NCBI GenBank assembly: GCA_049511615.1
Contig: JBEKXW010000009.1
Coordinates: 12,703-76,702 of the forward strand
Origin: Candidatus Dormibacteria bacterium
Lineage (GTDB): Bacteria; Chloroflexota; Dormibacteria; Aeolococcales; Aeolococcaceae
Length of the DNA: 64,000 bases
Reading direction: 5' to 3'
The translations under genes were made by a program, and so were the position numbers. Shown here piece after piece: positions 2,385 to 55,960 of this stretch (the stretch's first letter is position 1; every line of letters begins with the position of its first letter). The notes under the pieces are model-generated. The model saw nothing but the letters and a program-made list of their open reading frames with translations, did not search any database and had not been told where the DNA came from.

Positions 2385-3434
2385 TCAGCCTGCCCCGACG
2401 CTGGCGGCCCCGTGAGCGGGATCCCGCTGCCGGGCGGGGGACAGCATCCCTTCCAGGTGGTCGATGAGCTCCTCGAGAACCTCGGGCTGGAGCACCAGCT
2501 GGCGACGCCCACCCTGGCTGCGGTTGGCCACGATCCCCGCGTCGCGCAGGACCTTCACATGGTTGCTGACCGTGGGCTGGGCCAGCGCGAAGAGCTCGGC
2601 CAGCTCGCTGACCGTGCTCGGGGCCGTGCGGAGCACCTCGACCATGGCCAGCCGGGTCGGGTCCGAGATGGTCTTCAGGCGTCGCGCCAGGATCTCGGTG
2701 CGGGCCCGCGCCTCGGCCCCGCTGCCCTCGGCGCGCACCCCGATCATCACCGTCCCGGGCAGGTCGGCCAGCGAGCCCAGGTGGGCGAAGTAGGAGGGGA
2801 CCACCGCCACGATCCCCCCGGTGGGGAGCGAGGCGACCAGGTCCTCGAGGAGCCGGCCCTCCGGCTTGTAGGTGCTGCGGGCGACCTCCTGCCACGGGGC
2901 GCCCCGGTGCTGGATCTCGCGCCGGGCCGCGACCGCCGCCTCCACGGAACGCAGGCCGTTCCGCATCCAGTCCGATCGGACGGCGGACCAGACGTCGCGC
3001 ACCATCTCCACGAAGGCGCGGCGGGTCTCGGGCGACGAGCGCAACCGGGCCAGGCGGTTCCTCATCGCCACCCTGTCCTCGGGCGTTTCCGAGGCGAGCC
3101 GCAGGTCCACCGGTGCATCGGCGCAGAGGCTCTCGAGCCGGCCCAGCACCTCCTCGGCATCGAGCGAGAAGAGCAGCCCCCCGTGGTGGGCGAGGATGCC
3201 CACCTCCATCGAGCCGCTGCAGTCGGTCGCTTCCTCCGTGCCCCAGAAGGTGCGCACCCGCTCGCCCAGCTGGGGGGATTCGGCGTAGACCCTGCCGAGG
3301 GTGGCGTGGTCGCGGCGGAACTCGGGTCGCGAGGCGGCATGCAGGACCCAGTCCAGCTCGGACGCGACGGAACCGCCCACCACCACGTCGGGGGACGGTT
3401 GCTCCGATGCGGGCTGCTCGTGATAGAAGGGCAT
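2385..3434 (-). CDS. ArsR-family transcriptional regulator with a ~250-aa N-terminal extension (DUF5937-like) and a C-terminal winged HTH
   Basis: C-terminal ISDPTRLAMVEVLRTAPSTVSELAELFALAQPTVSNHVKVLRDAGIV is an HTH_20/ArsR motif. ATG at 3434 checked on the sequence. Confidence 0.8.
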   Translation of the reverse strand: MPFYHEQPASEQPSPDVVVGGSVASELDWVLHAASRPEFRRDHATLGRVYAESPQLGERVRTFWGTEEATDCSGSMEVGILAHHGGLLFSLDAEEVLGRLESLCADAPVDLRLASETPEDRVAMRNRLARLRSSPETRRAFVEMVRDVWSAVRSDWMRNGLRSVEAAVAARREIQHRGAPWQEVARSTYKPEGRLLEDLVASLPTGGIVAVVPSYFAHLGSLADLPGTVMIGVRAEGSGAEARARTEILARRLKTISDPTRLAMVEVLRTAPSTVSELAELFALAQPTVSNHVKVLRDAGIVANRSQGGRRQLVLQPEVLEELIDHLEGMLSPARQRDPAHGAASVGAG

Positions 3435-3794: not shown

Positions 3795-3995
3795 TCAGCG
3801 GGCGCGGGCCGTCCAGCGGAGCACGAGGTACACCGCCAGCGCGATCAGCCCCAGGACCACCACCGTCTTGATCAGGAACATGATCACCCCGGCGGGCCAG
3901 CCGAGGATGACGTAGGCGAGGATCACCGCGATGACGGCGGTGACGATGATCGTGAGGGCGTGATGCGGCTGGAGCCGAGCCGGGGAGGTGCTCAT
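3795..3995 (-). CDS. Small hydrophobic membrane protein (66 aa, 2 TM)
   Basis: ORF with two clear transmembrane helices, transcribed divergently from the trx operon. Confidence 0.4.
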   Translation of the reverse strand: MSTSPARLQPHHALTIIVTAVIAVILAYVILGWPAGVIMFLIKTVVVLGLIALAVYLVLRWTARAR

Positions 3996-4110: not shown

Positions 4111-4126
4111 ATACCCCTGGGGGTAT
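4111..4126. promoter_or_regulatory. Perfect palindrome ATACCCC-T-GGGGGTAT, a CsoR/CstR-type operator upstream of trx
   Basis: Seen in the sequence ~50 bp upstream of the trx ATG. Operators of the CsoR family are GC-rich pseudo-palindromes of the ATACC...GGTAT type. Confidence 0.5.
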
Positions 4127-4176
4127 ATAGTCGGGAACGCAAGAACCCCGCACGGGGGCATCAACTCGAGGTGGCC

Positions 4177-4554
4177 ATGTCGACGATCGCGCTGAGTGGA
4201 AAGAGCTTCTCCGAGACGGTGAGCCGGGATGGGATCGTCATGGTCGACTTCTGGGCGGCCTGGTGCGGGCCGTGCCGCGCCTTCGCGCCGGTGTTCGAGG
4301 CGGCGGCCACCGAGCACCCGGACATCGTCTTCGCCAAGGTCGACACCGAGGCGGAGCCGGCCCTCTCGAGGTCACTCGGGATCATGTCCATCCCCACCCT
4401 GATGATCTTCCGGGACGGCATCCTGGTCTTCGAACAGCCCGGTGCCCAGCCCGCGGCGGTGCTGGCCAGGCTGATCGACGCTGTCAGGGACCTGGACATG
4501 GACGCGGTCCGCCAGGAGATGACCGCCCCTGGAGCGGTCGCGGAGACGGCATGA
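4177..4554 (+). CDS. trxA: Thioredoxin
   Basis: WCGPC active site (DFWAAWCGPCRAF), ~125 aa, GAGG RBS 6 nt upstream of the ATG. Confidence 0.9.
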   Translation: MSTIALSGKSFSETVSRDGIVMVDFWAAWCGPCRAFAPVFEAAATEHPDIVFAKVDTEAEPALSRSLGIMSIPTLMIFRDGILVFEQPGAQPAAVLARLIDAVRDLDMDAVRQEMTAPGAVAETA

Positions 4555-4985
4555 CCGCCACCGCATCGACGAGCCGCCGGTTGCGGGTCGACCACGAGCG
4601 CGTCGACCGGTTCCGGATCACGGTCCGCCAGCACACCCTCTGGGTCGACCAGCCCGTGCTCGACGGCGGCGAGGACGGGGCCGCCACCCCCACCGAGCTG
4701 TTCGTCGCCAGCCTCGCCTCGTGCGTGGCCTTCTACGTCCGCCGCTTCCTCGCGCGGCACGGGCTGCCGGTGGCCGGGCTGTCCGTCATCGCCGACTACG
4801 ACATGGCCGCCCAGCCGGCCCGGGTGGGTGAGGTCCGCCTGCAGGTGCAGCTGGCGGGCGATCTGCCGCCGGAGCGGCGGGCGGCGCTGCTTGCGGTCGC
4901 CGCGCGCTGCACTGTCCACAACACCGTGCAGCACGGTCTCCCGGTCCGGATCGCGCTGGCCGCACCGGTCTCGGACCGGGCATGA
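4551..4985 (+). CDS. OsmC/Ohr-family peroxiredoxin-like protein
   Basis: ATGA overlap with the trx stop. OsmC-like sequence with conserved Cys (ASLASC..., AARCTVHN). Confidence 0.8.
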   Translation: MTATASTSRRLRVDHERVDRFRITVRQHTLWVDQPVLDGGEDGAATPTELFVASLASCVAFYVRRFLARHGLPVAGLSVIADYDMAAQPARVGEVRLQVQLAGDLPPERRAALLAVAARCTVHNTVQHGLPVRIALAAPVSDRA

Positions 4986-5037
4986 CGGGAAGGGGACGGC
5001 TCGCGACCGCGCTCGCGGCTCCCGAGCGGGGGCGGTC

Positions 5038-5307
5038 GTGAAGCTGGACGATGCGGCCGTCACCGAGGTGCTGCGGCGGCTGCGGCGGGCTGACGGCCAG
5101 ATCCGCGGCGTCATCCGCATGCTCGAGGAGGGCCGCGACTGCGTGGAGGTGGTGACCCAGCTCGCGGCGGTGTCCAGCGCCCTCGATCGGGCGGGTTTCC
5201 GGTTGATCGCGACCGGCCTCCAGCAGTGCGTGGCCGCGCGCGAGGGAGGCGAGGCTCCCACCATCGACGAGGGGCAGCTGGAGAAGCTCTTCCTATCCCT
5301 GGCGTGA
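5038..5307 (+). CDS. CsoR/RcnR/CstR-family (DUF156) metal- or persulfide-sensing repressor
   Basis: ~90 aa with IRGVIRMLEEGRDCVEVVTQL...LQQCVAA. It has two Cys at the CsoR ligand positions but no His at the C-4 position, i.e. the CstR/FrmR-like subtype. GTG start at 5038. Confidence 0.8.
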   Translation: MKLDDAAVTEVLRRLRRADGQIRGVIRMLEEGRDCVEVVTQLAAVSSALDRAGFRLIATGLQQCVAAREGGEAPTIDEGQLEKLFLSLA

Positions 5308-5718
5308 GCCTGGGGTGGCGCTCGCGACCGCCGGCTCGGCGACGGGGAGCGGATCCCGGGGACGGGTCTCCGGATGGCGGTCGAGCACGATCTGGTGGAC
5401 GATGTCGCATGCCTGCGCGATGCGCGGCTCCGCCAGCGAGTAGTAGACGGTGGTCCCGCCGCGCCGGGTGGCGACCAGCCCCGCGTGCCGCATCACTGAC
5501 AGATGCTGGCTGGCGTTGGGGAGGCTCATCCCCACGGTTTCGGCCAGGTCGCTGACGCAGCGCTCACCGCTCCTCAGCGCCTGGAGGATCATCAGGCGCT
5601 TGGGGTCGGTGAGGACCTTGCACATCTCGGCGTGAAGCCGGAAGGCCTCGGCGTTCCGCCGCCGGTCGTCGGCCTGCGCGCTGCTCGGCTCATCCGTCAT
5701 GGTCGCCATCGTAGCCAT
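5293..5718 (-). CDS. ArsR-family regulator with SqrR/BigR-like two-cysteine arrangement
   Basis: HTH_20 core (LTDPKRLMILQAL...VSDLAETVGMSLPNASQHLSVMRHAGLV). Cys in helix 2 (HAEMCKVL) and near the C-terminus (AQACDIV). ATG at 5718 verified. Confidence 0.8.
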   Translation of the reverse strand: MATMATMTDEPSSAQADDRRRNAEAFRLHAEMCKVLTDPKRLMILQALRSGERCVSDLAETVGMSLPNASQHLSVMRHAGLVATRRGGTTVYYSLAEPRIAQACDIVHQIVLDRHPETRPRDPLPVAEPAVASATPGSRQG

Positions 5719-5720
5719 TA

Positions 5721-5736
5721 TTGCGTCATTTCGCAA
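5721..5736. promoter_or_regulatory. Palindrome TTGCG-N6-CGCAA (site 1), immediately upstream of the ArsR2 start
   Basis: Read from the sequence; the same motif recurs at 5922-5937. Confidence 0.4.
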
Positions 5737-5921
5737 GTAACCAGCCAGCGGACGGATTCCGTCCCGTGACGGGCCGCCATGGACGGCGGGGTCCCCAGGC
5801 ATGCCTGTGCCAGACAGCCCGCGCCGATAAGGCCGTTGGGCACGGCTGGCGGTGGGCAGGAGTTCGGGGGGCAGAGGACGTTGCGCCCTGGAAGGCGCCG
5901 CGAGAAGCGCGGAGACTTTGG

Positions 5922-5937
5922 TTGCGTATAAGCGCAA
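5922..5937. promoter_or_regulatory. Palindrome TTGCG-N6-CGCAA (site 2), ~80 bp upstream of the dsrE-like gene
   Basis: Read from the sequence. It lies in the divergent intergenic region between ArsR2 and the dsrE-tusA-hdr operon. Confidence 0.4.
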
Positions 5938-6017
5938 GGACGCAACAAACGTGGCGACCCTCACCCGGTCGGGTGGCGGGCGGTGAGAGCCGGGCGACTA
6001 CGGAGGTGACGACGCAG

Positions 6018-6611
6018 ATGGTGGACAGCATGGCGACATCGACGACGGCCATGGCGGAGCGCACCGGCCCGGCGCTGACCGAGGAGGACGTGCGGCGGAT
6101 CGTGAGGTCCGAGATGGAGCGCGCCGTCGCCCGGGACCCCGGGAGCGGGAGGGCGACGATCATCGCCTCGAAGGGGACCCTCGACTTCGCCTACCCTCCC
6201 CTGATCCTCGCCACCACCGCGGCCGCCTCGGGGATGCAGACCTCGGTCTTCTTCACCTTCTACGGCCTGAACATCATCCACAAGGACTTCGAGCGCCTGC
6301 TCAAGGTCTCGCCGCTCGGCAACCCGGCGATGCCGATGCCGGTCACGATGCCGAACTTCGTTCTCGGGCTCCCCGGGATGGGCCCGATGGCGACCGGGAT
6401 GATGAAGGCGAAGTTCCGGGGCAAGCACGTCGCCTCCATCCGCGAGCTTCTCGCCACGGCACGGGAGCTCGACGTCCGGCTGATCGCGTGCCAGATGACC
6501 ATGGACGTCTTCGGTTACAAGCCCGAGGACTTCATCGAGGGAGTCGAGTTCGCCGGCGCGGCGGCCTTCCTCGCCGAGGCGCGTAAGGCGCACCTCACTC
6601 TCTTCATCTAG
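6018..6611 (+). CDS. DsrE/DsrF-like (DsrE2-type) sulfur-relay family protein
   Basis: Motif ATIIASKGTLDFAYPPLILATTAAASGMQTSVFFTFYGLNII is typical of the DsrE_2 family. First gene of the operon. Confidence 0.7.
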   Translation: MVDSMATSTTAMAERTGPALTEEDVRRIVRSEMERAVARDPGSGRATIIASKGTLDFAYPPLILATTAAASGMQTSVFFTFYGLNIIHKDFERLLKVSPLGNPAMPMPVTMPNFVLGLPGMGPMATGMMKAKFRGKHVASIRELLATARELDVRLIACQMTMDVFGYKPEDFIEGVEFAGAAAFLAEARKAHLTLFI

Positions 6612-6656
6612 GCCGGGCCACACCCGAGAACAGAGAACGCGTTCAGGAAGGAAACC

Positions 6657-6908
6657 ATGGCTGAGACCGAGATTCAGGCGACGGTGGTCGTCGACGCCCG
6701 CGGGCTGCTCTGCCCGATGCCGATCGTCAAGACCGCCAAGGCGATGAAGGAGCTCGCGCCCGGGGACGTGCTCAAGGTGATGGCCACCGACCGGGGGTCG
6801 GTCGCGGACGTCCCCGCCTGGGCGGGGAGCACCGGCAACGAGCTGCTGGAGTGGCATCAGGAGGGTGAGACGTTCGTCTTCCTGCTGCGCAAGGGCGAGG
6901 GGGACTGA
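6657..6908 (+). CDS. tusA: TusA-like sulfur carrier protein
   Basis: 83 aa with the CPxP motif (LLCPMPIV). AGGAAGG RBS. Confidence 0.85.
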   Translation: MAETEIQATVVVDARGLLCPMPIVKTAKAMKELAPGDVLKVMATDRGSVADVPAWAGSTGNELLEWHQEGETFVFLLRKGEGD

Positions 6909-6912
6909 TCCC

Positions 6913-7281
6913 ATGGCAGAGACCCAGAAGCTGGTGATCATGGTCACCCACGGTCCCGCCGAGCCGGAGCTCGCCTCCATCCCCTTCTCGATGGCCGGCG
7001 GAGCCCTGGCGTCGGACGTCGACGTCGTCATGGGCTTCCAGGGCGACGGCTGCCTGCTGGTCAAGAAGGGGGTTGCGGACACGGTGGCGGCGCCCGGGTT
7101 CACGCCGCTGCGCGAGCTGCTGCCGACCATCCAGGAGCTGGGGGGCAAGATCCTGGTCTGCTCCCCGTGCTGCAAGAGCCGCGGTCTGACCGAGGCGGAC
7201 CTGGTGGACGGAGCGGAGATCGTCGCGGCGGGCAGGTTCGTCGCCGAGATCACCTCGGCGACCAACAGCCTCACCTACTGA
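6913..7281 (+). CDS. DsrE-family sulfur-relay protein
   Basis: DsrE/DsrF fold signature (KLVIMVTHGP...GGKILVCSPCCKSRGL), 122 aa. Confidence 0.8.
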   Translation: MAETQKLVIMVTHGPAEPELASIPFSMAGGALASDVDVVMGFQGDGCLLVKKGVADTVAAPGFTPLRELLPTIQELGGKILVCSPCCKSRGLTEADLVDGAEIVAAGRFVAEITSATNSLTY

Positions 7282-7293
7282 GAGGAGACGGAG

Positions 7294-7560
7294 ATGTCGA
7301 CGGTGCTGACCGAGGCGGATGTGGCGGCGCTCGGCGTCGCCAAGGTCGTGGACGCGCGCGGCACGGGATGCCCAGGGCCGCTGCTCGAGGCCAAGAAGGC
7401 GATGGCGGGCATCGCCGTCGGCGATGTGATCGAGCTCTGGTCGAGCGACCCCCAGACCAAGGCCGACGTGGCGGCCTGGGCCGGCAAGGTTGGCCACGGG
7501 TTCCTCGGTGCGGTCGCCGCCCAGGGGTACGACCGCGTCCTCGTCCGCCGCGCCCGGTGA
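7294..7560 (+). CDS. tusA: TusA-like sulfur carrier protein (second copy)
   Basis: 88 aa with the CPxP motif (TGCPGPLL). GAGGAGA RBS. Confidence 0.85.
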   Translation: MSTVLTEADVAALGVAKVVDARGTGCPGPLLEAKKAMAGIAVGDVIELWSSDPQTKADVAAWAGKVGHGFLGAVAAQGYDRVLVRRAR

Positions 7561-7576
7561 GCTGAGGCCTGGTCGC

Positions 7577-8005
7577 GTGGTCCAGCCCGCGCCCTGCGGC
7601 GTCGAGGCGGGACCGGCGCGCGCGCCCCGGGTTCTCGTCTTCTCCACCAACGCCATCTCCGATCCCGGCATCGATCTGGCGGGGAGCTCGCACATGCACT
7701 ACTCACCCGAGGTGGTCGTCATCAGCCTGCCGTGCACCAGCGGGGTGCGGCCGGGGTGGATCGTCCACGCCCTCGAGCGGGGCTTCGATGGCGTCTTCAT
7801 CGCCGCCGACGGCGAGGAGTGCGGCTACCTGCCGGACTGCACCGCGCGCTCGTCGCGCATCGTCCAGGCGGCCCAGGCGCTGATGGCGGAGCGGGGGATC
7901 GACGGGCGCAGGGTGAAGATGGCGGCCATCTGCTCGGTGTGCGCCGAGCCGTTCACCCGCCAGGTGCGCGGCTTCACCGAGTCCCTGGCGGCGCTGGAGG
8001 GGTAG
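7577..8005 (+). CDS. MvhD/FlpD-like (methyl-viologen-reducing hydrogenase delta subunit family) protein
   Basis: RVLVFSTNAISDPGIDLAG...VVVISLPCTSGVRPGWIVHALERGFDGVFIAADGEECGYLPDC matches the MvhD fold. GTG start at 7577. The usual N-terminal CxxC is replaced by S/I. Confidence 0.65.
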   Translation: MVQPAPCGVEAGPARAPRVLVFSTNAISDPGIDLAGSSHMHYSPEVVVISLPCTSGVRPGWIVHALERGFDGVFIAADGEECGYLPDCTARSSRIVQAAQALMAERGIDGRRVKMAAICSVCAEPFTRQVRGFTESLAALEG

Positions 8006-8011
8006 GGGGCG

Positions 8012-10717
8012 ATGGAGGTGTCGACGGCCTACGACGCGCTGGTCATCGGCAGCGGGATCGGCGGCATGGAGGCGGCGATCAAGCTCGGCGACATGGGCTA
8101 CCGGGTGCTGGTGGTCGAGAAAGAGCCGTCGATCGGGGGCAAGATGATCCTGCTCAGCAAGGTCTTCCCCACCCTGGACTGCGCCAGCTGCATCTCGACG
8201 CCGAAGATGGCGGCGACCGCGCACCACCCCAACGTCACCGTTCTGACCCAGGCGGAGGTGACCCGCATCCGCGACCGTGATGGCGGCGGCTTCCACGCCA
8301 CCGTGCATCGGTCGGCGCGCTTCGTCGACGAGTCCCTGTGCACCGGTTGCCGGCTCTGCGAGATGGCCTGCACGGTCGCGGTCCCCGACCAGTTCAACGG
8401 CGAGATGGTCTCGCGGCGTGCCGCCTACATCCCCTTCCCCCAGGCGATCCCACAGAAGGCGCTCATCGAGCGCGCCGGTAGCTCGCCCTGCAGCTTCACC
8501 TGCCCCGCCGGGGTCAAGGCGCACGGCTACGTCTCGCTGGTGCGCAGCGGCAGGGACCAGGAGGCATTCGCCCTGGTGGCGGAGACGACCCCTCTGGTGG
8601 GCACCCTCGGCCGTGCCTGCTACGCCCCCTGCGAGGCGGAGTGCACCCGGGGCAGTCTGGAGGGCCCGGTGTCGATCCGCCGTCTCAAACGCTTCGTCGC
8701 CGACGCTCACTACGCGCTGCCCGAGCCCCCGGAGGGCGCGCGGCCGGCGCCGAACGGGAGGCGCATCGCTGTGGTCGGATCCGGACCCGCCGGCCTGACC
8801 GCGGCCTGGCAACTGGCGCGCGGTGGCTACGGGGTCACCATCTTCGAAGCAGCGCCCGCGCCGGGTGGCGCCCCCCGCCTCGCCATCCCCGGCTACCGCC
8901 TGCCCGTCGAGGTGATCGAGCGCGACATCCGCAACGTGACCGACCTGGGTGTCGAGATCGTGACCGGCACCCGCGTCGATGACCTCGCGGCATTCCGGGC
9001 GCAGGGGTACGACGCCGTGCTGGTGGCCACCGGGACACCGCGGCCCGCCCGCCTGCGCGTGCCTGGCGAGGACTCGCTCGACGGGATCCGCGCCGCGCTC
9101 GACCTCCTGCGCGACATCCGGCTCGATCACGCCCCGGACCTCGGCGGCAGGGTCGTCGCCGTCATCGGCGGGGGCAACGTCGCCATCGACGCGGCGCGCA
9201 GCGCCCGCCGCCTCGGCGCCGCGACGGTGCATCTCGTCTGCCTCGAGCAGCGCGCCGAGATGCCCGCCTACGCGTGGGAGGTCGACGAGGCGCTCGCCGA
9301 GGGCGTACGGCTGCACGACGGGTGGGGGATCGCGGGATTTCGTGGCGGCACCGAGGTGGAGGGGGTCGAGCTCAAGCGCTGCGTCGCGGTGTTCGACGCC
9401 GAGCACCGGTTCAGCCCGCGCTATGACGAGACCGCTGGTGAGGTGCTCGGCTGCGACGCGGTCGTCGTCGCCATCGGCATGGGTGCCGACACCGCGGCGT
9501 TCCCAGCGCTCGCGCCGGCGGGGGCGCGCGCCCTTCAGGCGGATGCCGAGCACCTTCAGACCGCGGTGCCATGGGTCTTCGCCGCCGGCGACGCCGTGAC
9601 CGGGCCCACCACCATCGCGGAGGCGGTCGGGCAGGGCCGCCGCGCCGCCTTCATGATCGACCGCTGGCTCCGCGATCTTCCCCTCACGGGCTTCGACGAA
9701 CCCCTGCCCAAGGTCGACGGGGCCGCGGTGCTGGCCCGGCAGCGCAGCCACAGCCGTCGCGCGCCACTCGCCGCCCGCCCTCAGCTGACCGAGGCGCCCG
9801 CCGGCTTCGTCGAGCTCGAACCCGCGCTCAGCGAGGACCAGGCACGCGAGGCCGCCGGTCGCTGCCTGGACTGCGGGGTCTGCTCGGAGTGCCACGAGTG
9901 CCTGGCCGCCTGCCCCGCGGCGGCGATCGACCTGGGCATGCGGGCGTCGGACGTCGAGGTCGCGGTGGGATCGGTCGTCGTCTCCACCGGCTACCGCATC
10001 TTCCCGGCCGATCTCAAGCCCGAGTACGGGTACGGGCGCTTCAAGAACGTGATCACCGGGACCCAGATGGAGCGCCTGCTGGCGCCGACCCGTCCCTACA
10101 ACACCGTGCTCCGGCCGGGCGACGGGAAGGTGCCGGAGCGGATCGGCTACGTGATGTGCACGGGTTCGCGTGACCAGACCGTGGGCAACCCGCTCTGCTC
10201 CAAGTTCTGCTGCATGTACTCGCTCAAGCAGAACCAGCTGATCATGGGCGCGCTCCCCCTCGCCGACGTGACCGTCCACTACATCGATATCCGGGCCGCC
10301 GGCAAGGGGTACGACGAGTTCTTCGAGCAGGCGAAGGGGATGGGGACGACCTTCGTCAAGGGCCGCGTTGCCGGCATCACCGAGAGGCCGGACGGCGACC
10401 TTGTCCTCCGCTACGAGGACATCGATCACGGCGGGGTGATCACCGAGGCGGAGTACGACCTCGTGGTCCTGGCGGTGGGCGTCCAGCCCAATCCGGAGGC
10501 CGCCCAACCCTTCGGGCCCGGTGAGCTGGTCCTGGACGAGCACGGCTACGTGGCCGAGGTCGACGAGGATCTCAACCCGGGCGCGACCAGCATCCCCGGC
10601 GTCTTCGTGGCGGGGGCAGCATCCGGCCCGCGGGACATCCCGGAGTCGATCCTCCATTCCGGTGCCGCCGTCGCCCAGGCCGCCGCCCACCTCGAGCGGC
10701 GGAGGGTGGCGTCGTGA
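8012..10717 (+). CDS. HdrL-like large heterodisulfide reductase subunit A homologue with an embedded GltD/NfnB-like NAD(P)H-binding module and ferredoxin domains
   Basis: HdrA hallmarks: N-terminal FAD site DALVIGSGIGGMEAA, FPTLDCASCI, and C-terminal YVMCTGSRD...NPLCSKFCCMY. Inserted GltD-like region: CSFTCPAGV...CYAPCEAEC, IAVVGSGPAGLTAAW, VVAVIGGGNVAIDAAR. Additional 2x[4Fe-4S] motif CLDCGVCSECHECLAACP. 901 aa. Confidence 0.85.
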   Translation: MEVSTAYDALVIGSGIGGMEAAIKLGDMGYRVLVVEKEPSIGGKMILLSKVFPTLDCASCISTPKMAATAHHPNVTVLTQAEVTRIRDRDGGGFHATVHRSARFVDESLCTGCRLCEMACTVAVPDQFNGEMVSRRAAYIPFPQAIPQKALIERAGSSPCSFTCPAGVKAHGYVSLVRSGRDQEAFALVAETTPLVGTLGRACYAPCEAECTRGSLEGPVSIRRLKRFVADAHYALPEPPEGARPAPNGRRIAVVGSGPAGLTAAWQLARGGYGVTIFEAAPAPGGAPRLAIPGYRLPVEVIERDIRNVTDLGVEIVTGTRVDDLAAFRAQGYDAVLVATGTPRPARLRVPGEDSLDGIRAALDLLRDIRLDHAPDLGGRVVAVIGGGNVAIDAARSARRLGAATVHLVCLEQRAEMPAYAWEVDEALAEGVRLHDGWGIAGFRGGTEVEGVELKRCVAVFDAEHRFSPRYDETAGEVLGCDAVVVAIGMGADTAAFPALAPAGARALQADAEHLQTAVPWVFAAGDAVTGPTTIAEAVGQGRRAAFMIDRWLRDLPLTGFDEPLPKVDGAAVLARQRSHSRRAPLAARPQLTEAPAGFVELEPALSEDQAREAAGRCLDCGVCSECHECLAACPAAAIDLGMRASDVEVAVGSVVVSTGYRIFPADLKPEYGYGRFKNVITGTQMERLLAPTRPYNTVLRPGDGKVPERIGYVMCTGSRDQTVGNPLCSKFCCMYSLKQNQLIMGALPLADVTVHYIDIRAAGKGYDEFFEQAKGMGTTFVKGRVAGITERPDGDLVLRYEDIDHGGVITEAEYDLVVLAVGVQPNPEAAQPFGPGELVLDEHGYVAEVDEDLNPGATSIPGVFVAGAASGPRDIPESILHSGAAVAQAAAHLERRRVAS

Positions 10718-12504
10718 GCAGCGCCGGGCTCCGCCCCGATCCCGCGAAGCCCGGCATCGACGCCGGTCCCCGACGGAGGATCGGCGTCTACGTCTGCCAG
10801 TGCGGCGGCAACATCTCCGACCACGTCGACGTCGAGCGGGTGGTGGAGGCGGCCAGCGCGGACGCCGACGTGGTGGTGGCGCGGGACGCGATGTTCACCT
10901 GCTCTGATGCCACCCAGCAGGAGATCGCTGCCGACATCGCCGCGCAGCACCTCGACGGGCTGGTGGTCGCTTCCTGCTCGCCGAAGCTCCACACCTTCAC
11001 CTTCCGGGGCGTGGCCCGGCGGGCCGGGCTCAACCCCTACGAGTACACCCAGGTCAACCTCCGCGAGCAGTGTTCGTGGACGCACACCGACGACCCCGAG
11101 GGGGCCACCCGGAAGGCGATCCGCCTGGTGCACGCCGGCATCGCCCGGACCCGGCTCACCGAGCCGCTGCAGCCGACCACGGTCGAGACGGTGCCCCGGG
11201 CGCTGGTCATCGGCGGCGGCGTGGCCGGGATGCGGGCGGCGATCGGGCTGGCCGAGATCGGCCTGGGTGTCACCCTGGTCGAGCGGGAGCGCAAGCTCGG
11301 TGGCTGGGTGGCGGGGTTTGGCGCCACCTTCCCTCATGGAACGCGCGGCGCCCGCTTGGTCGCGCGCCTGGCCGCGGAGATCCAGCGCCAGCCGGCGATC
11401 ACCGTCCTCACCGGTGCCGAGGTGGTCGCCAAGTCCGGGACCTATGGCAACTACCAGGTCACGGTGGCGGCCGGTGGCGAATCACGGACGCTCGCGGTCG
11501 GCCAGATCGTGGTGGCGACCGGCTTCGACAGCTACGAGCCGGAGGCCGGCGAGTTCGGTTACGGCATCCAGGGGGTGCTGACTCTGCCCGAGTTCCGGCG
11601 GCTGGTCGACCAGGGGCACGGTCCGCTCGCCTACCGTGGCCGGGCGGTCCGGACCATCGCCTACATCTACTGCGTGGGCAGTCGCGACGCCGAGCGTGCC
11701 TACTGCTCGCGCTTCTGCTGCACCGCCGCGGTGCACGCGTCGCTGCTCGCGGCGGAGCGGGATCCCGAGATCCGCCACTACCACCTCTACCGGGATCTCC
11801 GCACCTATGGGAAGAACGAGGCGATGCTCACCGAGTCCCGCCGGCGCGGCTCGGTGTACCTGAAGTTCGCCGATGACGAGCCGCCCCAGGTGGCCGGCGA
11901 CGGCGACGGACTTCACCTCACCGTCCGCGACCTGCTGACCGCGGGCGAGGAGCTCCGCGTCGATGCCGATCTCGTGGTCCTAGCCACCGGGATGGTTCCA
12001 CGGCGGAACCCGGGCCTGGTCGGCGCGCTCAAACTCCCGGTCGGCAGGGACGGGTTCTTCAACGAGATCCACCCCAAGCTGCGACCGGTGGAGACCGTCG
12101 TCGACGGCGTGATGATCGCCGGCGCCTGCCAGGGGCCCAAGACGATGGCGGAGAGCGTCGCCTCGGGGCTCGCCGCCGTCACCCAGGCGGCCGCGGTGCT
12201 GAAGCGGGGAGTGGCCGAGCTCGACCCCCAGGTGGCCACGGTCAGCACCTCGGCCTGCACCGGGTGTGGGGTCTGTCTCGACGCCTGCCCGTTCGGCGCC
12301 ATCTCGCTCGCGGCCGCCGGGACGGCGGCCGGGGAGGCGATCTCCTCTCCTGCGGCGATGGTCGCGACCATCGACGCCGCCGGGTGCAAGGGATGCGGTG
12401 GCTGCGCACCCGTCTGCCCCCAGGACGCCATCGACCTCAAGGGCTACACCGACGCCCAGGTGCGGGCGATGATCGATGGGCTCCTCGCCGGGGTGCCGGC
12501 ATGA
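10714..12504 (+). CDS. hdrA: Heterodisulfide reductase subunit A (HdrA) with N-terminal MvhD-like Cys domain and C-terminal 2x[4Fe-4S] ferredoxin
   Basis: GTGA overlap with the hdrL stop. FAD motif ALVIGGGVAGMRAAIGLA, HdrA signature YCVGSRD...YCSRFCC, ferredoxin CTGCGVCLDACP and CKGCGGCAPVCP. The N-terminal YVCQCGGNIS...MFTCSD...LVVASCS is MvhD-like. Confidence 0.85.
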   Translation: MSSAGLRPDPAKPGIDAGPRRRIGVYVCQCGGNISDHVDVERVVEAASADADVVVARDAMFTCSDATQQEIAADIAAQHLDGLVVASCSPKLHTFTFRGVARRAGLNPYEYTQVNLREQCSWTHTDDPEGATRKAIRLVHAGIARTRLTEPLQPTTVETVPRALVIGGGVAGMRAAIGLAEIGLGVTLVERERKLGGWVAGFGATFPHGTRGARLVARLAAEIQRQPAITVLTGAEVVAKSGTYGNYQVTVAAGGESRTLAVGQIVVATGFDSYEPEAGEFGYGIQGVLTLPEFRRLVDQGHGPLAYRGRAVRTIAYIYCVGSRDAERAYCSRFCCTAAVHASLLAAERDPEIRHYHLYRDLRTYGKNEAMLTESRRRGSVYLKFADDEPPQVAGDGDGLHLTVRDLLTAGEELRVDADLVVLATGMVPRRNPGLVGALKLPVGRDGFFNEIHPKLRPVETVVDGVMIAGACQGPKTMAESVASGLAAVTQAAAVLKRGVAELDPQVATVSTSACTGCGVCLDACPFGAISLAAAGTAAGEAISSPAAMVATIDAAGCKGCGGCAPVCPQDAIDLKGYTDAQVRAMIDGLLAGVPA

Positions 12505-12737
12505 GCCGCGACATTCGCGAGGTGATGCGCGACGAGCCCCTGGTCCGCGGCCGGCTGGTGGAGCTCCTGCTCCGCGAGGGGCCGCTGACCGTGCCGGAGG
12601 CGGCGGCGCGTGGCGGCTGGCCCGAGGACGAGGTGATGGTCTGGATGATGGGCCTGCGCAAGTACGGCCACGTCGCCGAGGAGAAGGCCAGCGCCGGCGA
12701 GGAGCGGTTCCGCTACGCGGCGGTGAGACGGTCGTGA
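12501..12737 (+). CDS. Small hypothetical protein (78 aa), possible winged-helix-like, translationally coupled between hdrA and hdrC
   Basis: ATGA overlap with the hdrA stop and GTGA overlap with the hdrC start. No recognisable family. Confidence 0.45.
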   Translation: MSRDIREVMRDEPLVRGRLVELLLREGPLTVPEAAARGGWPEDEVMVWMMGLRKYGHVAEEKASAGEERFRYAAVRRS

Positions 12738-13033
12738 GCGCGCTGGTCTCTCCGCACCGCCTTCGCGATCTTCGGGCCATGGGTCCGTTCGACGCCGAGG
12801 CCTGCATGAACTGCGGCGTCTGCACCGCCATCTGCCCGCTCGGGATGAGCCTGATGCCGCGCCTGCTGTTTCGCTACGTCGTGCTCGGCCTCGACGATCG
12901 GGTCATGGAGTCGAAGGACGCGATCTTCTCGTGCTTGCTCTGCCGGGCCTGCGAGGCGAGCTGCCCCGCCGGGGTGCACATCACCGAGGACGTGCGGCTG
13001 CTCCGCCACTGGCTGCTCGAGGAGGGACGCTGA
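12734..13033 (+). CDS. hdrC: Heterodisulfide reductase subunit C (HdrC), 2x[4Fe-4S] ferredoxin-like
   Basis: CMNCGVCTAICP and CLLCRACEASCP motifs; ~100 aa; GTG start overlapping the upstream stop. Confidence 0.8.
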   Translation: MSALVSPHRLRDLRAMGPFDAEACMNCGVCTAICPLGMSLMPRLLFRYVVLGLDDRVMESKDAIFSCLLCRACEASCPAGVHITEDVRLLRHWLLEEGR

Positions 13034-14109
13034 TGCCGCTGCCCATCCCCGACGTGGTGGGGATCCTGGCGGACAACCTTCGCCGGCGGGGATCCGTGCT
13101 CCCCATACCGGCGCGCCGGGCGACCCGCTGGGCGCGCGATCTCGGCATTCCCCGCGGCGGCGAGACCGTCCTCTACACGGGCCAGATGTACCAGCTGATC
13201 CCCTACATCGAGAGGCTGGTGCGTCTCGAGCAGCGGCTCGGCGACTCGCCACTGGCCCGGTTCAGCGGCCTGGCCCGCCGGGCGAACCGGCTGGTCAACG
13301 GGGTCGCCCTGGTGGCGCGGCCGCCGGTCGCGGAGCGGCGAGAGTACGACCGTGTCCCCGCCAACGTGGCGCGGCTGCTCACCCGGTCCGGGGTCGCCTT
13401 CGGCTGCCTGTACGAGGACGACCTCTACAGCGGGGCGCTCGCCCACGATCTCGGTGCCGACGAGGCGGTTGCCGCTCACGCGCGTCGGGTCGCCGGGATC
13501 CTCCGCCGGCACGGGGTCCGCGAGGTGATCACCATCGACCCCCACACGACGACGATGCTGCGCACCGTCTATCCGCGGCTGGTCGAGGGGTACGCGGTGC
13601 GGGTGCGCAGCTACCTCGAGGTGCTGGCCGAGCGCCGGCTGCCGGTGACCACCCCGCTGACCGGAGCCGTCGTCCTCCACGACTCCTGCGTCTACGCCCG
13701 CTGCGAGGGGATCGTCGAGGAGCCGCGGCGGCTGCTCGCCGCCGCAGGCCTCACCGTCCGCGACCCGGAGAGCTCGCGCATCCGCACCTGGTGCTGCGGT
13801 GGTCCGGCGGAGTCGCTCTTCCCCGCCACCGCCCTGGCGGTCGCCACCCAGCGCGTGGATCAGCTGCGGGCCGTGGCCCCTGACTGCGTCACCATGTGCC
13901 CGATCTGCCTGGTGAACCTGGGCAAGGCTGCGGACGGGAAGCTGCGCCTACGCGACATCTCCGACTGCCTCGTCGATGCGATCGAGCCGGAGGCCCGGCC
14001 CGGAGGGCCCAGCCGGGACAATGAGAAAGGGTCGGATGCCCGCCCGCCCGGGGTTTCCACACGGGGGCGCGGAACCGGGCCGGCGGGCGCCCGGGCTGCA
14101 CGCGTGTGA
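13033..14109 (+). CDS. hdrB: Heterodisulfide reductase subunit B (HdrB), CCG-domain protein
   Basis: TGATG overlap with the hdrC stop. C-terminal CCG domain HDSCVYARC...TWCCGGP...CVTMCPICL. The N-terminal CCG-like domain lacks the cysteines. Confidence 0.8.
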   Translation: MPLPIPDVVGILADNLRRRGSVLPIPARRATRWARDLGIPRGGETVLYTGQMYQLIPYIERLVRLEQRLGDSPLARFSGLARRANRLVNGVALVARPPVAERREYDRVPANVARLLTRSGVAFGCLYEDDLYSGALAHDLGADEAVAAHARRVAGILRRHGVREVITIDPHTTTMLRTVYPRLVEGYAVRVRSYLEVLAERRLPVTTPLTGAVVLHDSCVYARCEGIVEEPRRLLAAAGLTVRDPESSRIRTWCCGGPAESLFPATALAVATQRVDQLRAVAPDCVTMCPICLVNLGKAADGKLRLRDISDCLVDAIEPEARPGGPSRDNEKGSDARPPGVSTRGRGTGPAGARAARV

Positions 14110-14179
14110 CGCGTCCGGCATCGCTCCGTCACCAGCTCCTACGATCACCCCACCACCTCGGGCGCGACGATACCCAGCT

Positions 14180-14362
14180 ATGAGCGTGCGCCAGACTCTG
14201 GAGCGGTTGCGGGCCCTGATCGAGCGTGAACGGGGTCAGGGGATGGTCGAATACGCCCTGATCCTGGTCCTGATCGCCATCGTGGTCGTCCTCATCCTGC
14301 AGGTGGTCGGCAACCAGGTGGCCAACGCCTTCTCCAACGTCAGCAGCGGTCTCGGGAGCTGA
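14180..14362 (+). CDS. Flp/Fap-family pilin (60 aa)
   Basis: Flp motif GQGMVEYALILVLIAIVVVLI after a short leader. ATG at 14180 verified. Confidence 0.6.
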   Translation: MSVRQTLERLRALIERERGQGMVEYALILVLIAIVVVLILQVVGNQVANAFSNVSSGLGS

Positions 14363-14582: not shown

Positions 14583-16216
14583 TTGACCCCTCGCCGACTT
14601 GAGCTGACACCGCTTCCCGACCTGCTCCACGGGGCGCCCCGCGCCGGCGCCGTGAGGACCCGCCGTCCCGTCTACGTCGACCTGCTGCCTCCCTGCAACG
14701 CCGGCTGCCCGGCGGGCGAGAACATCCAGGCCTGGCTCGGATTCGCGCGCGATGGGAAGCACGAGGAGGCCTGGCGCCAGCTGGTCGCCGACAACCCGCT
14801 CCCCGCCATCCACGGGCGGGTCTGCTACCACCCCTGCGAGGACGTCTGCAACCGCAAGGAGCTGGACAGCTCGGTCTCGATCCACGCGGTCGAGCGCTTC
14901 CTGGGCGATCTCGCCCTGGAGCGGGGCTGGGCGTTCCCCGCGCCCCCCGCGCCGAGTGGGAAGCGGGTGCTGGTGATCGGGGCCGGCCCCAGCGGGCTCT
15001 CCGCCGCCTACCAGCTGGCCCGGCAGGGGCACCAGGTGGAGATCCGGGACCTGAGCTCCGAGGCGGGCGGGATGATGCGCTACGGCATCCCCGCCTACCG
15101 GCTGCCCCGCGACGTGCTGGCCGCTGAGATCGCCCGGGTCGAGGCGCTCGGGGTGCGCTTCGTCCGCGAGCACCGGGTGACCGACTTGGCCGCCGAGAGG
15201 GCCGAGGGCGGCTTCGACGCCGTCTTCGTGGCGGTCGGTGCCCACCTCTCCAAGCACGTCGACATCCCGGCCCGGGACGCGGGGCGGATCTACGACGCGG
15301 TGTCGTTCCTCCGCGACGTCGCCGCCGGTGGCGAGCCGGTGGTCGGCCGCCGGGTCGCCGTCTACGGCGGCGGCAACACCGCGATGGACGCCGCCCGGGT
15401 CGCCAAGCGGCTGGGTGCCAGCGACTCGATGATCGTCTATCGCCGCAACCGGGAGAGGATGCCGGCCCACGAGGATGAGGCCGACGCGGCCGAGCGCGAG
15501 GGGGTGCGGATCAACTGGCTGCACACCATCACCGCCTTCGAGGGACCGGAGCTGACCGTCGAGGTGATGGAGCTGGACAAGACCGGCTTCCCGCAGCCCA
15601 CCGGCCGGTTGGAGAAGCTGGCCGCCGACACCCTCATCCTGGCCGTCGGACAGGACGCCGACACCGGGTTCCTGCGCCGCGTGCCGGGGGTGGAGTTCAA
15701 GAGCGACGGCACGGTCATCGTCTCGGCCTCGATGATGACCGGCTGCCCGGGCGTGTTCGCGGGCGGGGACATGGTTCCCGCCGAGCGGACGGTCACCGTG
15801 GGCGTCGGCCACGGGAAGAAGGCCGCCCGGTTCATCGGCCAGTACCTGCAGGGGGCGGAGGCGGGCGTGGCCGCCAAGCACGACCTGGCCAGCTTCGACC
15901 GGCTCCACCCGTGGTACTTCGCCGACGCCCATGCCCGGCCCCAGCCGGAGCGGGAGCCGGGGGAGCGGGTGGCGGACTTCGCCGAGATCGTCGCCGGCCT
16001 GAGCGAGCAGGCGGCGGTCTTCGAGGCGCAGCGCTGCCTCTCCTGTGGCAACTGCTTCGAGTGCGACGGCTGCCTGGGCTCCTGCCCGGAGGATGCGGTG
16101 GTCAAGCTCGGGGTGGGGCACCGATACCGGTTCGACTACGACCGCTGCACCGGCTGCGGGACCTGCTTCGAGCAGTGCCCCGTGCATGCCATCGACATGG
16201 TCGGGGAGCCTCAGTG

Positions 16217-16217
<1 letters not shown>
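14583..16217 (+). CDS. Glutamate-synthase-small-subunit-like (GltD/PreT/SudA family) NAD(P)H flavoprotein with C-terminal 2x[4Fe-4S] ferredoxin domain
   Basis: N-terminal Fe-S motif CNAGCPAGENIQ...CYHPCEDVC, FAD/NAD sites VLVIGAGPSGLSAAY and VAVYGGGNTAMDAAR, C-terminal CLSCGNCFECDGC...CTGCGTCFEQCP. TTG start at 14583; a downstream GTG is also possible. Confidence 0.8.
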
Positions 16218-19830
<3,613 letters not shown>

Positions 19831-19831
<1 letters not shown>

Positions 19832-20835
19832 TGAAGCTCGACACCACCTACCTGGGCCTGGCCCTGTCGAATCCCCTGGTGGCCTCCGCCGGCCCGCTGT
19901 CGCGTAGCGTCAGCGGCATCCGGCGGCTGGCCGCGGCCGGCGTGGGCGCGGTCGTCCTGCCGTCGCTCTTCGAGGAGCAGATCCGGCGCGAGGCGGAGAG
20001 GGACGCCAACCTCGTCGAGGCGGGCAGTGAGAGCTTCGCCGAGGCGCTCACCTACATCCCCCTCCCGGTCTCCGACGGTCAGCCCCACCAGTACCTCAGC
20101 CTCATCGAGCGCGCCCGGGCGGCGGTCGCGATCCCGGTGATCGCGAGTCTCAACGGCGCGACGGCCGGCGGGTGGGCGGAGTACGCCACCTCCATGCAGG
20201 AGGCGGGCGCCTCCGCTATCGAGCTCAACATCTACTACCTGCAGGGTGACCCATTCGACCCCGGCCGCACGGTGGAGGAGCGGTACGTCGAGATCCTGCG
20301 CACGGTGCGAGCGGCCGTCACCATCCCGATCGCCGTGAAGCTGGGCCCCTACCTCAGCTCGGTGGGGGAGATGGCCACCCGCCTTCACGAGGCGGGCGCC
20401 GACGGCCTGGTCCTCTTCAACCGCTTCATGCAGACCGACATCGATGCCGCCACCCTCACGGTGAGCGCGGGGCTCCCACTCTCCACGCCCGCCGAGGCCA
20501 CCCTGCCCCGCGCCTGGATCGCCCGCCTGCGCGACAAGGTTCCGCTGTCCCTCGCTGCCACCAGCGGCGTGGAGAGCGCCACCGACGTGGCCGCCTACCT
20601 GCTGGCCGGGGCCGACGTGGTCATGACCACCTCGTCCCTGCTCCGCCATGGCCCCGAGCACGCCGCCGAGCTGATCGACGGACTGCAGGCCTGGATGGAG
20701 CGCAAGGGCCTCCAGAGCCTCGACCAGGTGCGCGGGCGGCTCTCGATGGCGGCTGCCGCCGATCCGTCGGCGTACGGGCGGTCCAGCTACCTCACCACCA
20801 TCGAGCAGGCGACCCGGGTCTACGCCCCCAGCTGA
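19831..20835 (+). CDS. Dihydroorotate-dehydrogenase-like (PreA/DHOD class 1 family) FMN protein without a ferredoxin tail
   Basis: TIM-barrel DHOD-like signature (LSNPLVASAGP..., AIELNIYY, VKLGPY, LVLFNRF). 1-nt overlap with the por stop. Confidence 0.8.
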
Positions 20836-50486: not shown

Positions 50487-50608
50487 GCCGAGCCCGTCAC
50501 GCCCCGGCCCGCGACGGCGGCCGGGAAGCGTCGAGAAACGATCACGGTGCCTCCACACCACGGCGGCGGACCTGTGGATAAGTAGTCGGCCGCCTATACT
50601 GCCAGACA

Positions 50609-51718: not shown

Positions 51719-51740
51719 CCAGCCGCGCCGGCTGGTCACG

Positions 51741-55950: not shown

Positions 55951-55960
55951 GGCCGGCGCC

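Follow-up and report, generated by a model that had tools for sequence, protein, structure and literature searches.

Methanogenesis, sulfate reduction and sulfur oxidation all have complexes of the heterodisulfide reductase (Hdr) type at their centre. A poorly characterised kind, the HdrABC/HdrL-MvhD cluster of sulfate-reducing bacteria, has been described in Syntrophobacter fumaroxidans (Sfum_0819-0824), where HdrABC/HdrL is produced only with sulfate and has been proposed to reduce DsrC, and where an HdrAL/POR cluster is carried as well (PMC5947623); locus VIII of Desulfobacterium autotrophicum HRM2 holds tandem hdrL/hdrA plus hdrCB (PMC2702500). The sHdr-LbpA systems of sulfur oxidisers are laid out as shdrC1B1AHC2B2 (type I) or shdrC1B1AHB3-etfAB-emo (type II; PMC11094781). 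Here we describe an operon from a 64,000-nucleotide stretch of a Candidatus Dormibacteria genome (contig JBEKXW010000009.1, positions 12,703 to 76,702; ‘the window’ below, in whose numbering coordinates are given unless a related locus is named) that joins TusA and DsrE sulfur carriers to a redox module of the HdrL-MvhD kind. We consider the whole best explained, with a probability of about one half, by an ArsR-controlled, NAD(P)(H)-coupled Hdr-type complex acting on carrier-bound sulfane sulfur, the reductive direction being favoured.

Raw lists of open reading frames in the window are crowded with spurious frames because its G+C content is high (~72%); one coding frame per stretch was picked by third-position GC profiles, and products were named by Pfam and NCBIfam scans. 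An earlier note on this DNA had read the operon as dsrE/tusA-mvhD-hdrL-hdrA-small-hdrC-hdrB, and both the identities and the order of the genes were upheld by the third-position GC and by the two scans. The ten + strand genes span 6018-14109:

6018-6611, + strand: dsrE2, DsrE2B-like protein of the DrsE_2 family (Pfam DrsE_2, E=2e-49; NCBIfam DsrE2, 194 bits against a cutoff of 210)
6657-6908, + strand: TusA 1, with a CPxP motif (Pfam TusA, E=5e-25)
6913-7281, + strand: DsrE3-like protein, 122 aa, motif VCSPCC (Pfam DsrE, E=1.5e-16)
7294-7560, + strand: TusA 2 (Pfam TusA, E=4e-17)
7577-8005, + strand: MvhD/FlpD-like iron-sulfur protein (Pfam FlpD, E=1e-26)
8012-10717, + strand: HdrL, 901 aa, an HdrA core with an NfnB/GltD-like insert (Pfam, NCBIfam and PDB)
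10714-12504, + strand: HdrA, 596 aa, methanogen type (PDB 5odc_A, E=9e-118)
12501-12737, + strand: winged-helix protein, 78 aa, Cys-free, with no Pfam or NCBIfam match
12734-13033, + strand: HdrC-like 2x[4Fe-4S] protein, 99 aa (Pfam Fer4 families; TIGR03290 HdrC, E=2e-14)
13033-14109, + strand: HdrB-like protein, 358 aa (Pfam CCG, one domain)

Translational coupling had been claimed for the whole operon, and it holds for the last five genes, which are joined by four overlaps (hdrL/hdrA GTGA, hdrA/small ATGA, small/hdrC GTGA and hdrC/hdrB TGATG); the other five junctions are gaps of 4-45 nt. The interval first drawn around the locus also had to be trimmed at both ends, as its start, 4111, is that of a CsoR-type palindrome and not of a gene, and its end, 14362, takes in an unrelated Flp/Fap pilin gene (14180-14362, + strand) that lies outside the sulfur/Hdr system. 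A scan for terminators and promoters 3' of hdrB found none.

Synteny of the locus and its described relatives

Homologues of the HdrB-like protein number more than 1,600 at E<=1e-5 in a set of 5.8 billion proteins, the closest named ones coming from Candidatus Dormibacteria (87% identity) and Candidatus Limnocylindrales, and a scan of one genome per species found this marker in 219 species-level genomes. Loci were compared in the best 80 of these 219, and the counts of neighbours given below cover ~80-84 loci. All of the best 80 carriers are metagenome-assembled genomes (MAGs), mostly from peat and soil, and belong to the Dormibacterota, Chloroflexota and Actinomycetota (Thermoleophilia, Gaiellales, Solirubrobacterales, Acidimicrobiales); a plasmid collection searched for a cultured carrier gave only matches below 30% identity in unrelated contexts (e.g. 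a Streptomyces biosynthetic cluster). When all window proteins were searched by tblastn for the same gene neighbourhood, the core tusA-mvhD-hdrL-hdrA-small-hdrC-hdrB was found syntenic in practically every locus of the 80 genomes that is complete, that is, uncut by a contig end, with one hdrC-hdrB pair per syntenic locus, the window included. Recurrence of this order across 80 independent genomes goes far beyond chance juxtaposition and marks a conserved module, which is laterally spread.

Three layouts surround the core: that of the window, with arsR on the opposite strand ahead of dsrE2-tusA-dsrE-tusA-core; dsrE-tusA-core; and arsR-tusA-core-dsrE2. A DsrE-family gene is attached to the core in all three. 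An archaeal counterpart is found in a Halobacteriota/Archaeoglobaceae MAG (L087, 4569-10227), where the order is FlpD-HdrA (436 aa)-HdrA (652 aa)-small (110 aa)-HdrC-HdrB (408 aa); this module carries two unequal HdrA paralogues, and a DsrE gene lies ~4 kb from it. Two Thermoleophilia MAGs hold, in addition, a paralogous second cluster (L082, 12300-18860, - strand; likewise L065) with the order arsR-tusA-mvhD-hdrA'-hdrA-QmoC-like-dsrE and without HdrB, in which hdrA' encodes an HdrL-like core that lacks the NAD(P)H insert and the QmoC-like protein (387 aa) combines 2x[4Fe-4S] with membrane helices. Judging by this second cluster, modules of TusA, MvhD and an HdrA pair may make up a wider family whose electron exits can be exchanged.

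By published description, the cluster of sulfate-reducing bacteria introduced above is the closest known redox module. Both loci bring together HdrL (HdrA with a glutamate-synthase/NfnB-like module), HdrA, a hydrogenase-free MvhD, HdrC and HdrB; the proposed substrate DsrC belongs to the same TusA-DsrEFH-DsrC sulfur relay; and the pyruvate:ferredoxin oxidoreductase (PFOR) gene directly downstream here echoes the HdrAL/POR cluster of S. fumaroxidans. However, the present locus has dsrE2-tusA-dsrE3-tusA and an ArsR regulator joined to it, lacks the FdhB-like FeS protein and any dsr genes nearby, has a single-CCG HdrB and an inserted winged-helix subunit, shows domain losses in HdrA and HdrL that complement each other, and resides in soil phyla without sulfate reduction. 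Likened in this way through published descriptions, the redox module is a member or close relative of the HdrL-MvhD type.

The sHdr systems share with this locus the TusA, DsrE2 and DsrE3-type carriers, an ArsR-type repressor, a small open reading frame between hdrA and hdrC-hdrB, and even an HdrB variant with a single non-cubane cluster, sHdrB3 (PMC11094781). The differences are nonetheless such that we rejected membership: HdrA here is of the long methanogen type, whereas sHdrA has ~350 aa, FAD and one [4Fe-4S] and neither ferredoxin nor N-terminal domains; a single HdrCB pair stands in place of C1B1 plus C2B2 or B3; MvhD and HdrL are present; and no LbpA/GcvH-like gene or EtfAB-EMO was found. 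For LbpA/GcvH, tblastn with E. coli GcvH (a single query of limited sensitivity) gave no match at E<=1, whether in the window or across 84 loci, and no such family, nor EtfAB-EMO, was seen among the recurrent neighbours.

Methanogen MvhAGD-HdrABC (5odc) has a homologous HdrA whose N-terminal Cys-rich and C-terminal ferredoxin domains are kept here, and the MvhD, HdrC and HdrB folds are likewise retained; on the other hand, HdrA has lost the inserted ferredoxin domain, HdrB bears one of the two non-cubane cluster motifs, and the Cys set of MvhD differs. A methanogen-type Hdr linked to hydrogenase or formate dehydrogenase was rejected because HdrB has a single cluster and because neither gene was found in the 64-kb window nor, over 81 loci, among recurrent neighbour families. 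Desulfovibrio reportedly carries FlxABCD-HdrABC (Ramos et al. 2015), for which reduction of DsrC, a protein of the sulfur relay, has been proposed, possibly with bifurcation. The two have in common HdrABC, a protein like MvhD (FlxD) and a flavoprotein module that oxidises NAD(P)H, but FlxA, FlxB and FlxC are missing here, the HdrL insert being the operon’s sole NAD(P)H module, and Flx-Hdr membership was rejected for this reason. QmoABC was rejected for want of a membrane subunit: HdrC here is a soluble protein of 99 aa, and a QmoC-like protein occurs only in the second cluster of L065/L082. FlxABC and a QmoC-type membrane subunit are absent both from the window and from the recurrent neighbours within 10 kb in ~80 loci. 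The earlier note’s statement that the locus has no LbpA, hydrogenase or Flx extends from the window to the recurrent neighbours of its relatives.

The same note had set the locus apart from three established Hdr types. That separation stands for sHdr, for Mvh/Fdh and for Flx/Qmo, but it had overlooked a fourth described type, HdrABC/HdrL-MvhD, which shares the redox module; it is the carrier-fused arrangement that is undescribed in the literature searched (a search whose coverage leaves out most subscription journals), where we found no paper on this gene arrangement. Within that literature, five things are new: the fixed union with TusA/DsrE carriers and an ArsR regulator; an HdrB family that has one CCG motif and whose N-terminal half is polar and conserved; the complementary domain split of HdrA and HdrL; a conserved winged-helix subunit; and the spread over more than 200 species, all uncultured, from soil phyla without known dissimilatory sulfur metabolism. 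The locus is therefore not categorically new, but widespread and unstudied.

Subunit architecture and sulfur carriers

HdrA and HdrL have lost complementary parts of one domain set. HdrA aligns over residues 21-251 and 261-591 to residues 4-234 and 320-650 of methanogen HdrA (5odc_A) and has kept the Cys-rich domain at the N terminus, the core with FAD and [4Fe-4S] and, at the C terminus, the 2x[4Fe-4S] ferredoxin domain, but the inserted ferredoxin domain is gone, ~85 residues being swapped for nine; sHdrA (6tjr) matches at E=2e-32 and covers the core only. HdrL, on the contrary, begins at the FAD fingerprint and stops at the end of the flavin core, both terminal (ferredoxin) domains being gone, while of the inserted ferredoxin domain it retains both cluster motifs (CTGCRLCEMAC at about residue 110 and CLDCGVCSECHECLAACP at about residue 620). 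Between these motifs sits an NfnB/GltD-type module of ~450 residues (~157-610) that holds 2x[4Fe-4S], FAD and NAD(P)H sites. Matches in Pfam (Fer4_20 and Pyr_redox_2 at residues 157-542, within HdrA-type sequence) and in the PDB (NfnA, NfnI and GltD over residues 154-630, HdrA over 619-897) confirm the NAD(P)H module that the earlier note had placed in one of the two HdrA-type flavoproteins. The sum of HdrA and HdrL is one full HdrA domain set, and a heterodimer of the two is therefore likely, on evidence that we grade as strong though indirect. In methanogen HdrA (5odc) one site hands low-potential electrons to ferredoxin; in such a heterodimer this ferredoxin-donating site would be hard-wired to the NAD(P)(H) flavin.

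In the HdrB-like protein a single CCG motif, not two, is intact (C219, C254, C255, C289, C292). Its N-terminal half is Cys-less and instead conserves Tyr48, Tyr53, Gln54, Glu128, Asp/Glu130, Tyr132 and Asp169-Pro-His171, so that the motif positions read Tyr/Thr/Gly, Glu/Asp/Tyr and Asp-Pro-His-Thr. This pattern holds in 24 close and 113 distant full-length homologues, the latter being the full-length representatives among 181 family members (E<=1e-30, after clustering at 50%). A PDB search with the single sequence gave no match; a profile of the 24 sequences matched M. smegmatis EtfD (9ojn, 7e-17) and, weakly, methanogen HdrB (1e-5), and an AlphaFold2 model (predicted local distance difference test score, pLDDT, 76) shows the double-Rossmann-like HdrB fold, with EtfD, LutA and HdrB as best Foldseek matches. 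In two further MAGs (L085, Caldisphaeraceae; L086, whose HdrB-like protein clusters with one named Candidatus Korarchaeota), distant single-CCG members are paired with a LUD-domain plus 4Fe-4S (LutB-like) gene and not with HdrC/HdrA, which places the reach of the family beyond sulfur-carrier contexts. Distant archaeal homologues were for this reason rejected as guides to context, two of the three adjoining LutB-like genes and being uninformative for sulfur; the third is the archaeal module described above (L087).

All eight Cys of HdrC are invariant in 80/80 sequences. In the MvhD-like protein, aligned to MvhD (5odc_D, 8rvu_F), the N-terminal CxxC is gone, STNAI replacing CCNWC, and five Cys are invariant, among them those of the C-terminal CSVC, which has been gained together with one further Cys; its iron-sulfur ligand set, and perhaps the cluster type, may differ from those of MvhD. 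The 78-aa protein is modelled by AlphaFold2 (pLDDT 89) as a minimal winged helix, with Foldseek matches to SmtB, Z-alpha and MarR wings, and has 19 invariant residues and zero Cys. Only 77 homologues were found, the named ones annotated as hypothetical protein or small transcriptional regulator, and an orthologue lies within the cluster in 78 related loci, wherever checked. As it is homologous to the 110-aa protein in the same position of the archaeal module (hhalign 96.6%), it is an old, integral member of the module, and more likely a subunit than a free-standing regulator.

The carriers keep the Cys expected of them. Cys158 of the DsrE2B-like protein is invariant (52/52 sequences), as are Cys19 of TusA 1, in its CPxP motif (51/51), and Cys26 of TusA 2 (67/67), which is present in all three layouts; a TusA gene stands directly 5' of mvhD in nearly every locus. 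The DsrE3-like protein keeps two Cys in ~85% of 50 orthologues, and its Cys aligns with the active-site Cys of its best PDB match, 3mc3. This structure is DsrE3A, and 2qs7, the best match of the DsrE2B-like protein, is DsrE2B (Tanabe et al., PMC11094781); by these two relationships, the carriers are of the set found alongside the sHdr systems of sulfur oxidisers.

Regulators, candidate operators and surrounding genes

Upstream of the ten-gene operon lie a divergent arsR and a trx-osmC-csoR operon, the start of osmC overlapping the stop of trx (ATGA):

4111-4126: CsoR-type operator-like perfect palindrome ATACCCCTGGGGGTAT, ~50 nt 5' of trx; sole exact copy in the 64-kb window
4177-4554, + strand: trx, thioredoxin with a WCGPC motif, accessory (Pfam Thioredoxin, E=2e-25)
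4551-4985, + strand: osmC, OsmC-family protein, accessory (Pfam OsmC, E=1e-18)
5038-5307, + strand: CsoR-family repressor (Pfam Trns_repr_metal, E=2e-23)
5293-5709, - strand: arsR, ArsR/SmtB-family regulator (Pfam HTH_5, E=3e-16; NCBIfam HTH_metalloreg, 95 bits)
5721-5736: candidate ArsR operator 1, TTGCGTCATTTCGCAA, TTGCG-N6-CGCAA, beside the arsR start (motif scan and orthologous spacers)
5922-5937: candidate ArsR operator 2, TTGCGTATAAGCGCAA, ~80 nt 5' of dsrE2, in the most conserved block of the intergenic alignment

The predicted ArsR operator pair would govern both divergent promoters, and the comparative evidence for it is good. TTGCG-N6-CGCAA, with one mismatch allowed, matches at only two places in the window, both within the arsR-dsrE2 spacer; both copies are kept in six Dormibacterota spacers (L001, L008, L010, L011, L012, L013), and one copy adjoins arsR in Limnocylindrales loci L003/L004. 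An ArsR gene adjoins the cluster in 35/81 loci. The earlier note had described this regulator as a divergent two-Cys ArsR; it is divergent and Cys-containing, but the Cys number three, Cys30 and Cys101, which are conserved, and a third at 51. Among cluster-adjacent ArsR proteins (n=36) there are two subtypes, with Cys30 and Cys101 or with C101-x3-C105. Orthology to SqrR/BigR was rejected, since SqrR C41 (6o8l family) aligns with Gln and the C107 equivalent is not Cys.

The CsoR-family protein is CstR-like, as had been proposed: Cys36 and Cys65 align with the CsoR Cys ligands, and the position of the Cu-ligand His (4 residues before the second Cys; His in 4m1p, Asn in 7mq1) is Gly, a C-x-C type like that of CstR-type persulfide sensors. 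In cst operons, CstA of S. aureus joins rhodanese, TusA and DsrE domains, and CstR of E. faecalis controls an NADH-dependent CoA-persulfide reductase. The window resembles these operons in having a His-less CsoR-family repressor and a palindromic operator beside sulfur-carrier and thiol-redox genes, and in the logic of carriers plus an NAD(P)H-dependent persulfide-processing enzyme; however, the enzyme here would be a multi-subunit Hdr-type FeS flavoprotein, and the CsoR operon is only loosely linked to it. The trio trx-osmC-csoR, which had been counted as part of the locus, lies near the cluster in ~10/80 loci, with varying position and orientation, and is missing beside the closest relative (L001); we rejected it as a fixed part of the system. 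Given that ATACCCCTGGGGGTAT stands 5' of trx, the CsoR-family protein most likely autoregulates trx-osmC-csoR and not the hdr operon. A degenerate CsoR-type palindrome, ATATCCTCTGGGGCAT (45010-45025; three mismatches, about chance level), stands ~30 nt 5' of a gene for a 216-aa protein of the metallo-beta-lactamase fold (45056-45706, + strand) with weak GloB and Blh (sulfur transferase/dioxygenase) similarity, and this gene may be a CstR-type target, e.g. a persulfide dioxygenase.

Recurrent neighbours of the cluster point to reactive sulfur. Hemerythrin lies directly downstream in 10 loci, a class-V aminotransferase (cysteine-desulfurase-like) adjoins nine and a TPMT/TehB-like methyltransferase six; a Crp/Fnr regulator, an SQR-like flavoprotein, rhodanese, an extra DsrE, glutaredoxin, OsmC, CsoR and Trx also recur. 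The rest of the 64-kb window holds no Sox, Dsr or Apr genes. A TusE/DsrC-like match at E<0.01 was found in 1/84 loci, the match in the window (42190-42297) being insignificant (E=0.42).

Directly downstream of the operon, a translationally coupled trio (14583-20835, + strand) encodes a PRK12771-type NAD(P)-binding FeS flavoprotein (544 aa, 500 nt past the operon, 37% identical to the HdrL insert module), a NifJ-type PFOR (1205 aa) and a PRK07565 dihydroorotate-dehydrogenase-like protein. The same trio follows the hdr cluster in L001, L002 and L006 (copies of one contig), L012 and L066, and it may serve as a ferredoxin link or as an NAD(P)-dependent PFOR. On the other side lie genes for a 349-aa protein with a C-terminal ArsR-type helix-turn-helix and a long, uncharacterised N-terminal part (2385-3434, - strand) and for a 66-aa membrane protein of two helices (3795-3995, - strand), both of which recur in the same upstream position in L001 and the duplicates L002/L006, L012 having the 349-aa protein only. 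Positions 1-2300 have a weak third-position GC signal with repeated switching of frame and gave no clean gene call. Genes for a type IV or Tad-like pilus (50178-57700: a prepilin peptidase fragment, two T2SSE ATPases, T2SSF and N-methyl pilins) lie 36 kb beyond the Flp pilin.

Possible function and its alternatives

From what the sequences show, namely the genes and their domains, the conserved Cys ligands, the synteny and the conserved operators, we infer a complex with the following substrate, inducer and direction, and possibly bifurcation. The operon products would form a soluble multi-subunit Hdr-type complex, in which HdrL and HdrA would make up a heterodimeric flavoprotein core with the MvhD-like protein and the small winged-helix subunit attached, and HdrC would wire this core to the HdrB-like catalytic subunit with its single non-cubane [4Fe-4S] site. 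The substrate would be sulfane sulfur (persulfide, polysulfide or trisulfide) on the conserved Cys of TusA and the DsrE2/DsrE3-like carriers, and the electron partner would be NAD(P)(H) at the NfnB/GltD-type module of HdrL. The divergent ArsR, which presumably senses reactive sulfur species (RSS), would repress through the two TTGCG-N6-CGCAA operators. In the favoured direction, NAD(P)H would reduce carrier-bound sulfane sulfur to sulfide, for homeostasis or detoxification, and flavin-based bifurcation may couple this reduction to a second, low-potential acceptor.

One argument for the reductive direction is that CstR is already known to control persulfide reductases that depend on NAD(P)H. 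This direction is further favoured because thiol-reducing genes (trx, grx) travel with the cluster, and HdrA and MvhD are of the full-length kind known only from reductive or bifurcating enzymes, not of the stripped sHdrA kind. It is favoured, too, because the HdrABC/HdrL of S. fumaroxidans has been proposed to reduce DsrC (PMC5947623) and because Nfn1, an NfnB-type enzyme, is an NADPH-dependent, polysulfide-reducing ‘sulfide dehydrogenase’ (PMC5861303).

Several points nevertheless weigh against this reading. The carrier set of DsrE2B, DsrE3 and TusA is one that accompanies sulfur-oxidising sHdr systems (PMC11094781), and the nearby SQR-like genes fit an oxidative route. The Cys of ArsR are off the validated sensor positions of SqrR/BigR (C41/C107), all hosts found are uncultured MAGs, and the partners of distant HdrB-like relatives are LutB-like proteins, in contexts unrelated to sulfur. 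As the second cluster of L065/L082 lacks HdrB, the carrier-interacting site is possibly not HdrB; it may instead belong to the HdrA/MvhD part, HdrCB, QmoC and the NfnB insert then being electron modules that can replace one another. Finally, bifurcation is possible, since two HdrA-type flavins and one NfnB-type flavin are present, but it is energetically doubtful for persulfide reduction, the persulfide/polysulfide potential being hardly positive enough to drive electrons from NAD(P)H to ferredoxin.

The strongest alternative, which we regard as possible though clearly less probable than reduction, turns the direction around: an LbpA-independent, third sulfur-oxidising Hdr would receive sulfane sulfur from SQR/rhodanese through DsrE/TusA at HdrB and oxidise it (to sulfite), with electrons passing via HdrC and HdrA/HdrL to NAD(P)+, the uphill step possibly driven by bifurcation with a second acceptor reached via MvhD. 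In its favour, the carriers are those of sHdr systems, genes for SQR-like proteins and rhodanese stand close to some of the loci, and hdrA-small-hdrC-hdrB mirrors the type I order hdrA-hyp-hdrC2-hdrB2 (PMC11094781); but HdrA is not of the sHdrA type, there is one HdrCB pair whose HdrB has a single cluster, and no LbpA/GcvH-like gene was found in the window or the 84 loci. Repressors of the RSS type usually govern sulfur oxidation genes (PMC12423496, PMC10451225). The host soil lineages are mostly aerobic, which would suit oxidation; however, no sulfite-handling gene was found among the recurrent neighbours, and transfer of electrons from sulfane sulfur to NAD(P)+ is thermodynamically uphill without a second acceptor, of which none is encoded.

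A more elaborate proposal, which we put forward only tentatively and hold to be rather improbable, is a third, LbpA-independent kind of sulfur-dissimilating Hdr, common among the uncultured Dormibacterota, Chloroflexota and Actinomycetota of soils, in which the HdrA/HdrL heterodimer would bifurcate electrons from TusA/DsrE-borne sulfane sulfur taken up at the single-cluster HdrB, the low-potential branch passing to NAD(P)+ via the NfnB-like insert while MvhD would feed a second acceptor.

An unlikely alternative departs from sulfane sulfur as substrate: what the Hdr module reduces would be a different disulfide or small molecule, such as the disulfide of a low-molecular-weight thiol or an organic compound, and TusA/DsrE would serve biosynthetic trafficking or maturation. 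The class-V aminotransferase genes beside nine loci, the LutB-like LUD-domain proteins that adjoin distant HdrB-like homologues, the conserved polar (Tyr/Glu/Asp/His) N-terminal pocket that replaces the second cluster of HdrB and the best structural match of that protein, to EtfD and not HdrB, would all agree with it. Yet TusA stands 5' of mvhD nearly everywhere and DsrE is found in all layouts, a linkage unusually tight for a maturation factor, and no candidate genes for an alternative substrate co-vary with the cluster.

Handling of selenium or tellurium (selenide/selenopersulfide trafficking or detoxification) instead of sulfur is highly improbable, as the equal scores of TusA 1 against YedF (a selenium-metabolism TusA-like protein) and TusA, the best NCBIfam match of OsmC to ‘OsmC-related (seleno)protein’ and the contacts of HdrL, HdrC and HdrB with NF045663 ‘diclust_near_Sec’ are weak and far below curated cut-offs, and as no selD, selA, selB or yedE was found, in the window or among recurrent neighbour families, to go with the TPMT/TehB-like methyltransferases that adjoin six loci.

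Whichever way the electrons run, the operon unites the carrier set of sulfur oxidisers with the NAD(P)H-linked HdrL/HdrA/MvhD module of sulfate reducers, two things previously described apart. Hundreds of uncultured species carry it, from phyla that dominate soil and peat and are not considered sulfur specialists. Compact, soluble and free of both hydrogenase and LbpA, the system lends itself to studying the transfer of sulfur from carrier to Hdr and a possible HdrA/HdrL heterodimer. If the bifurcating, sulfur-oxidising proposal were true, abundant soil heterotrophs would gain unrecognised reducing power from reduced sulfur. The operon also suggests that reactive sulfur in soils is handled by a route so far overlooked.

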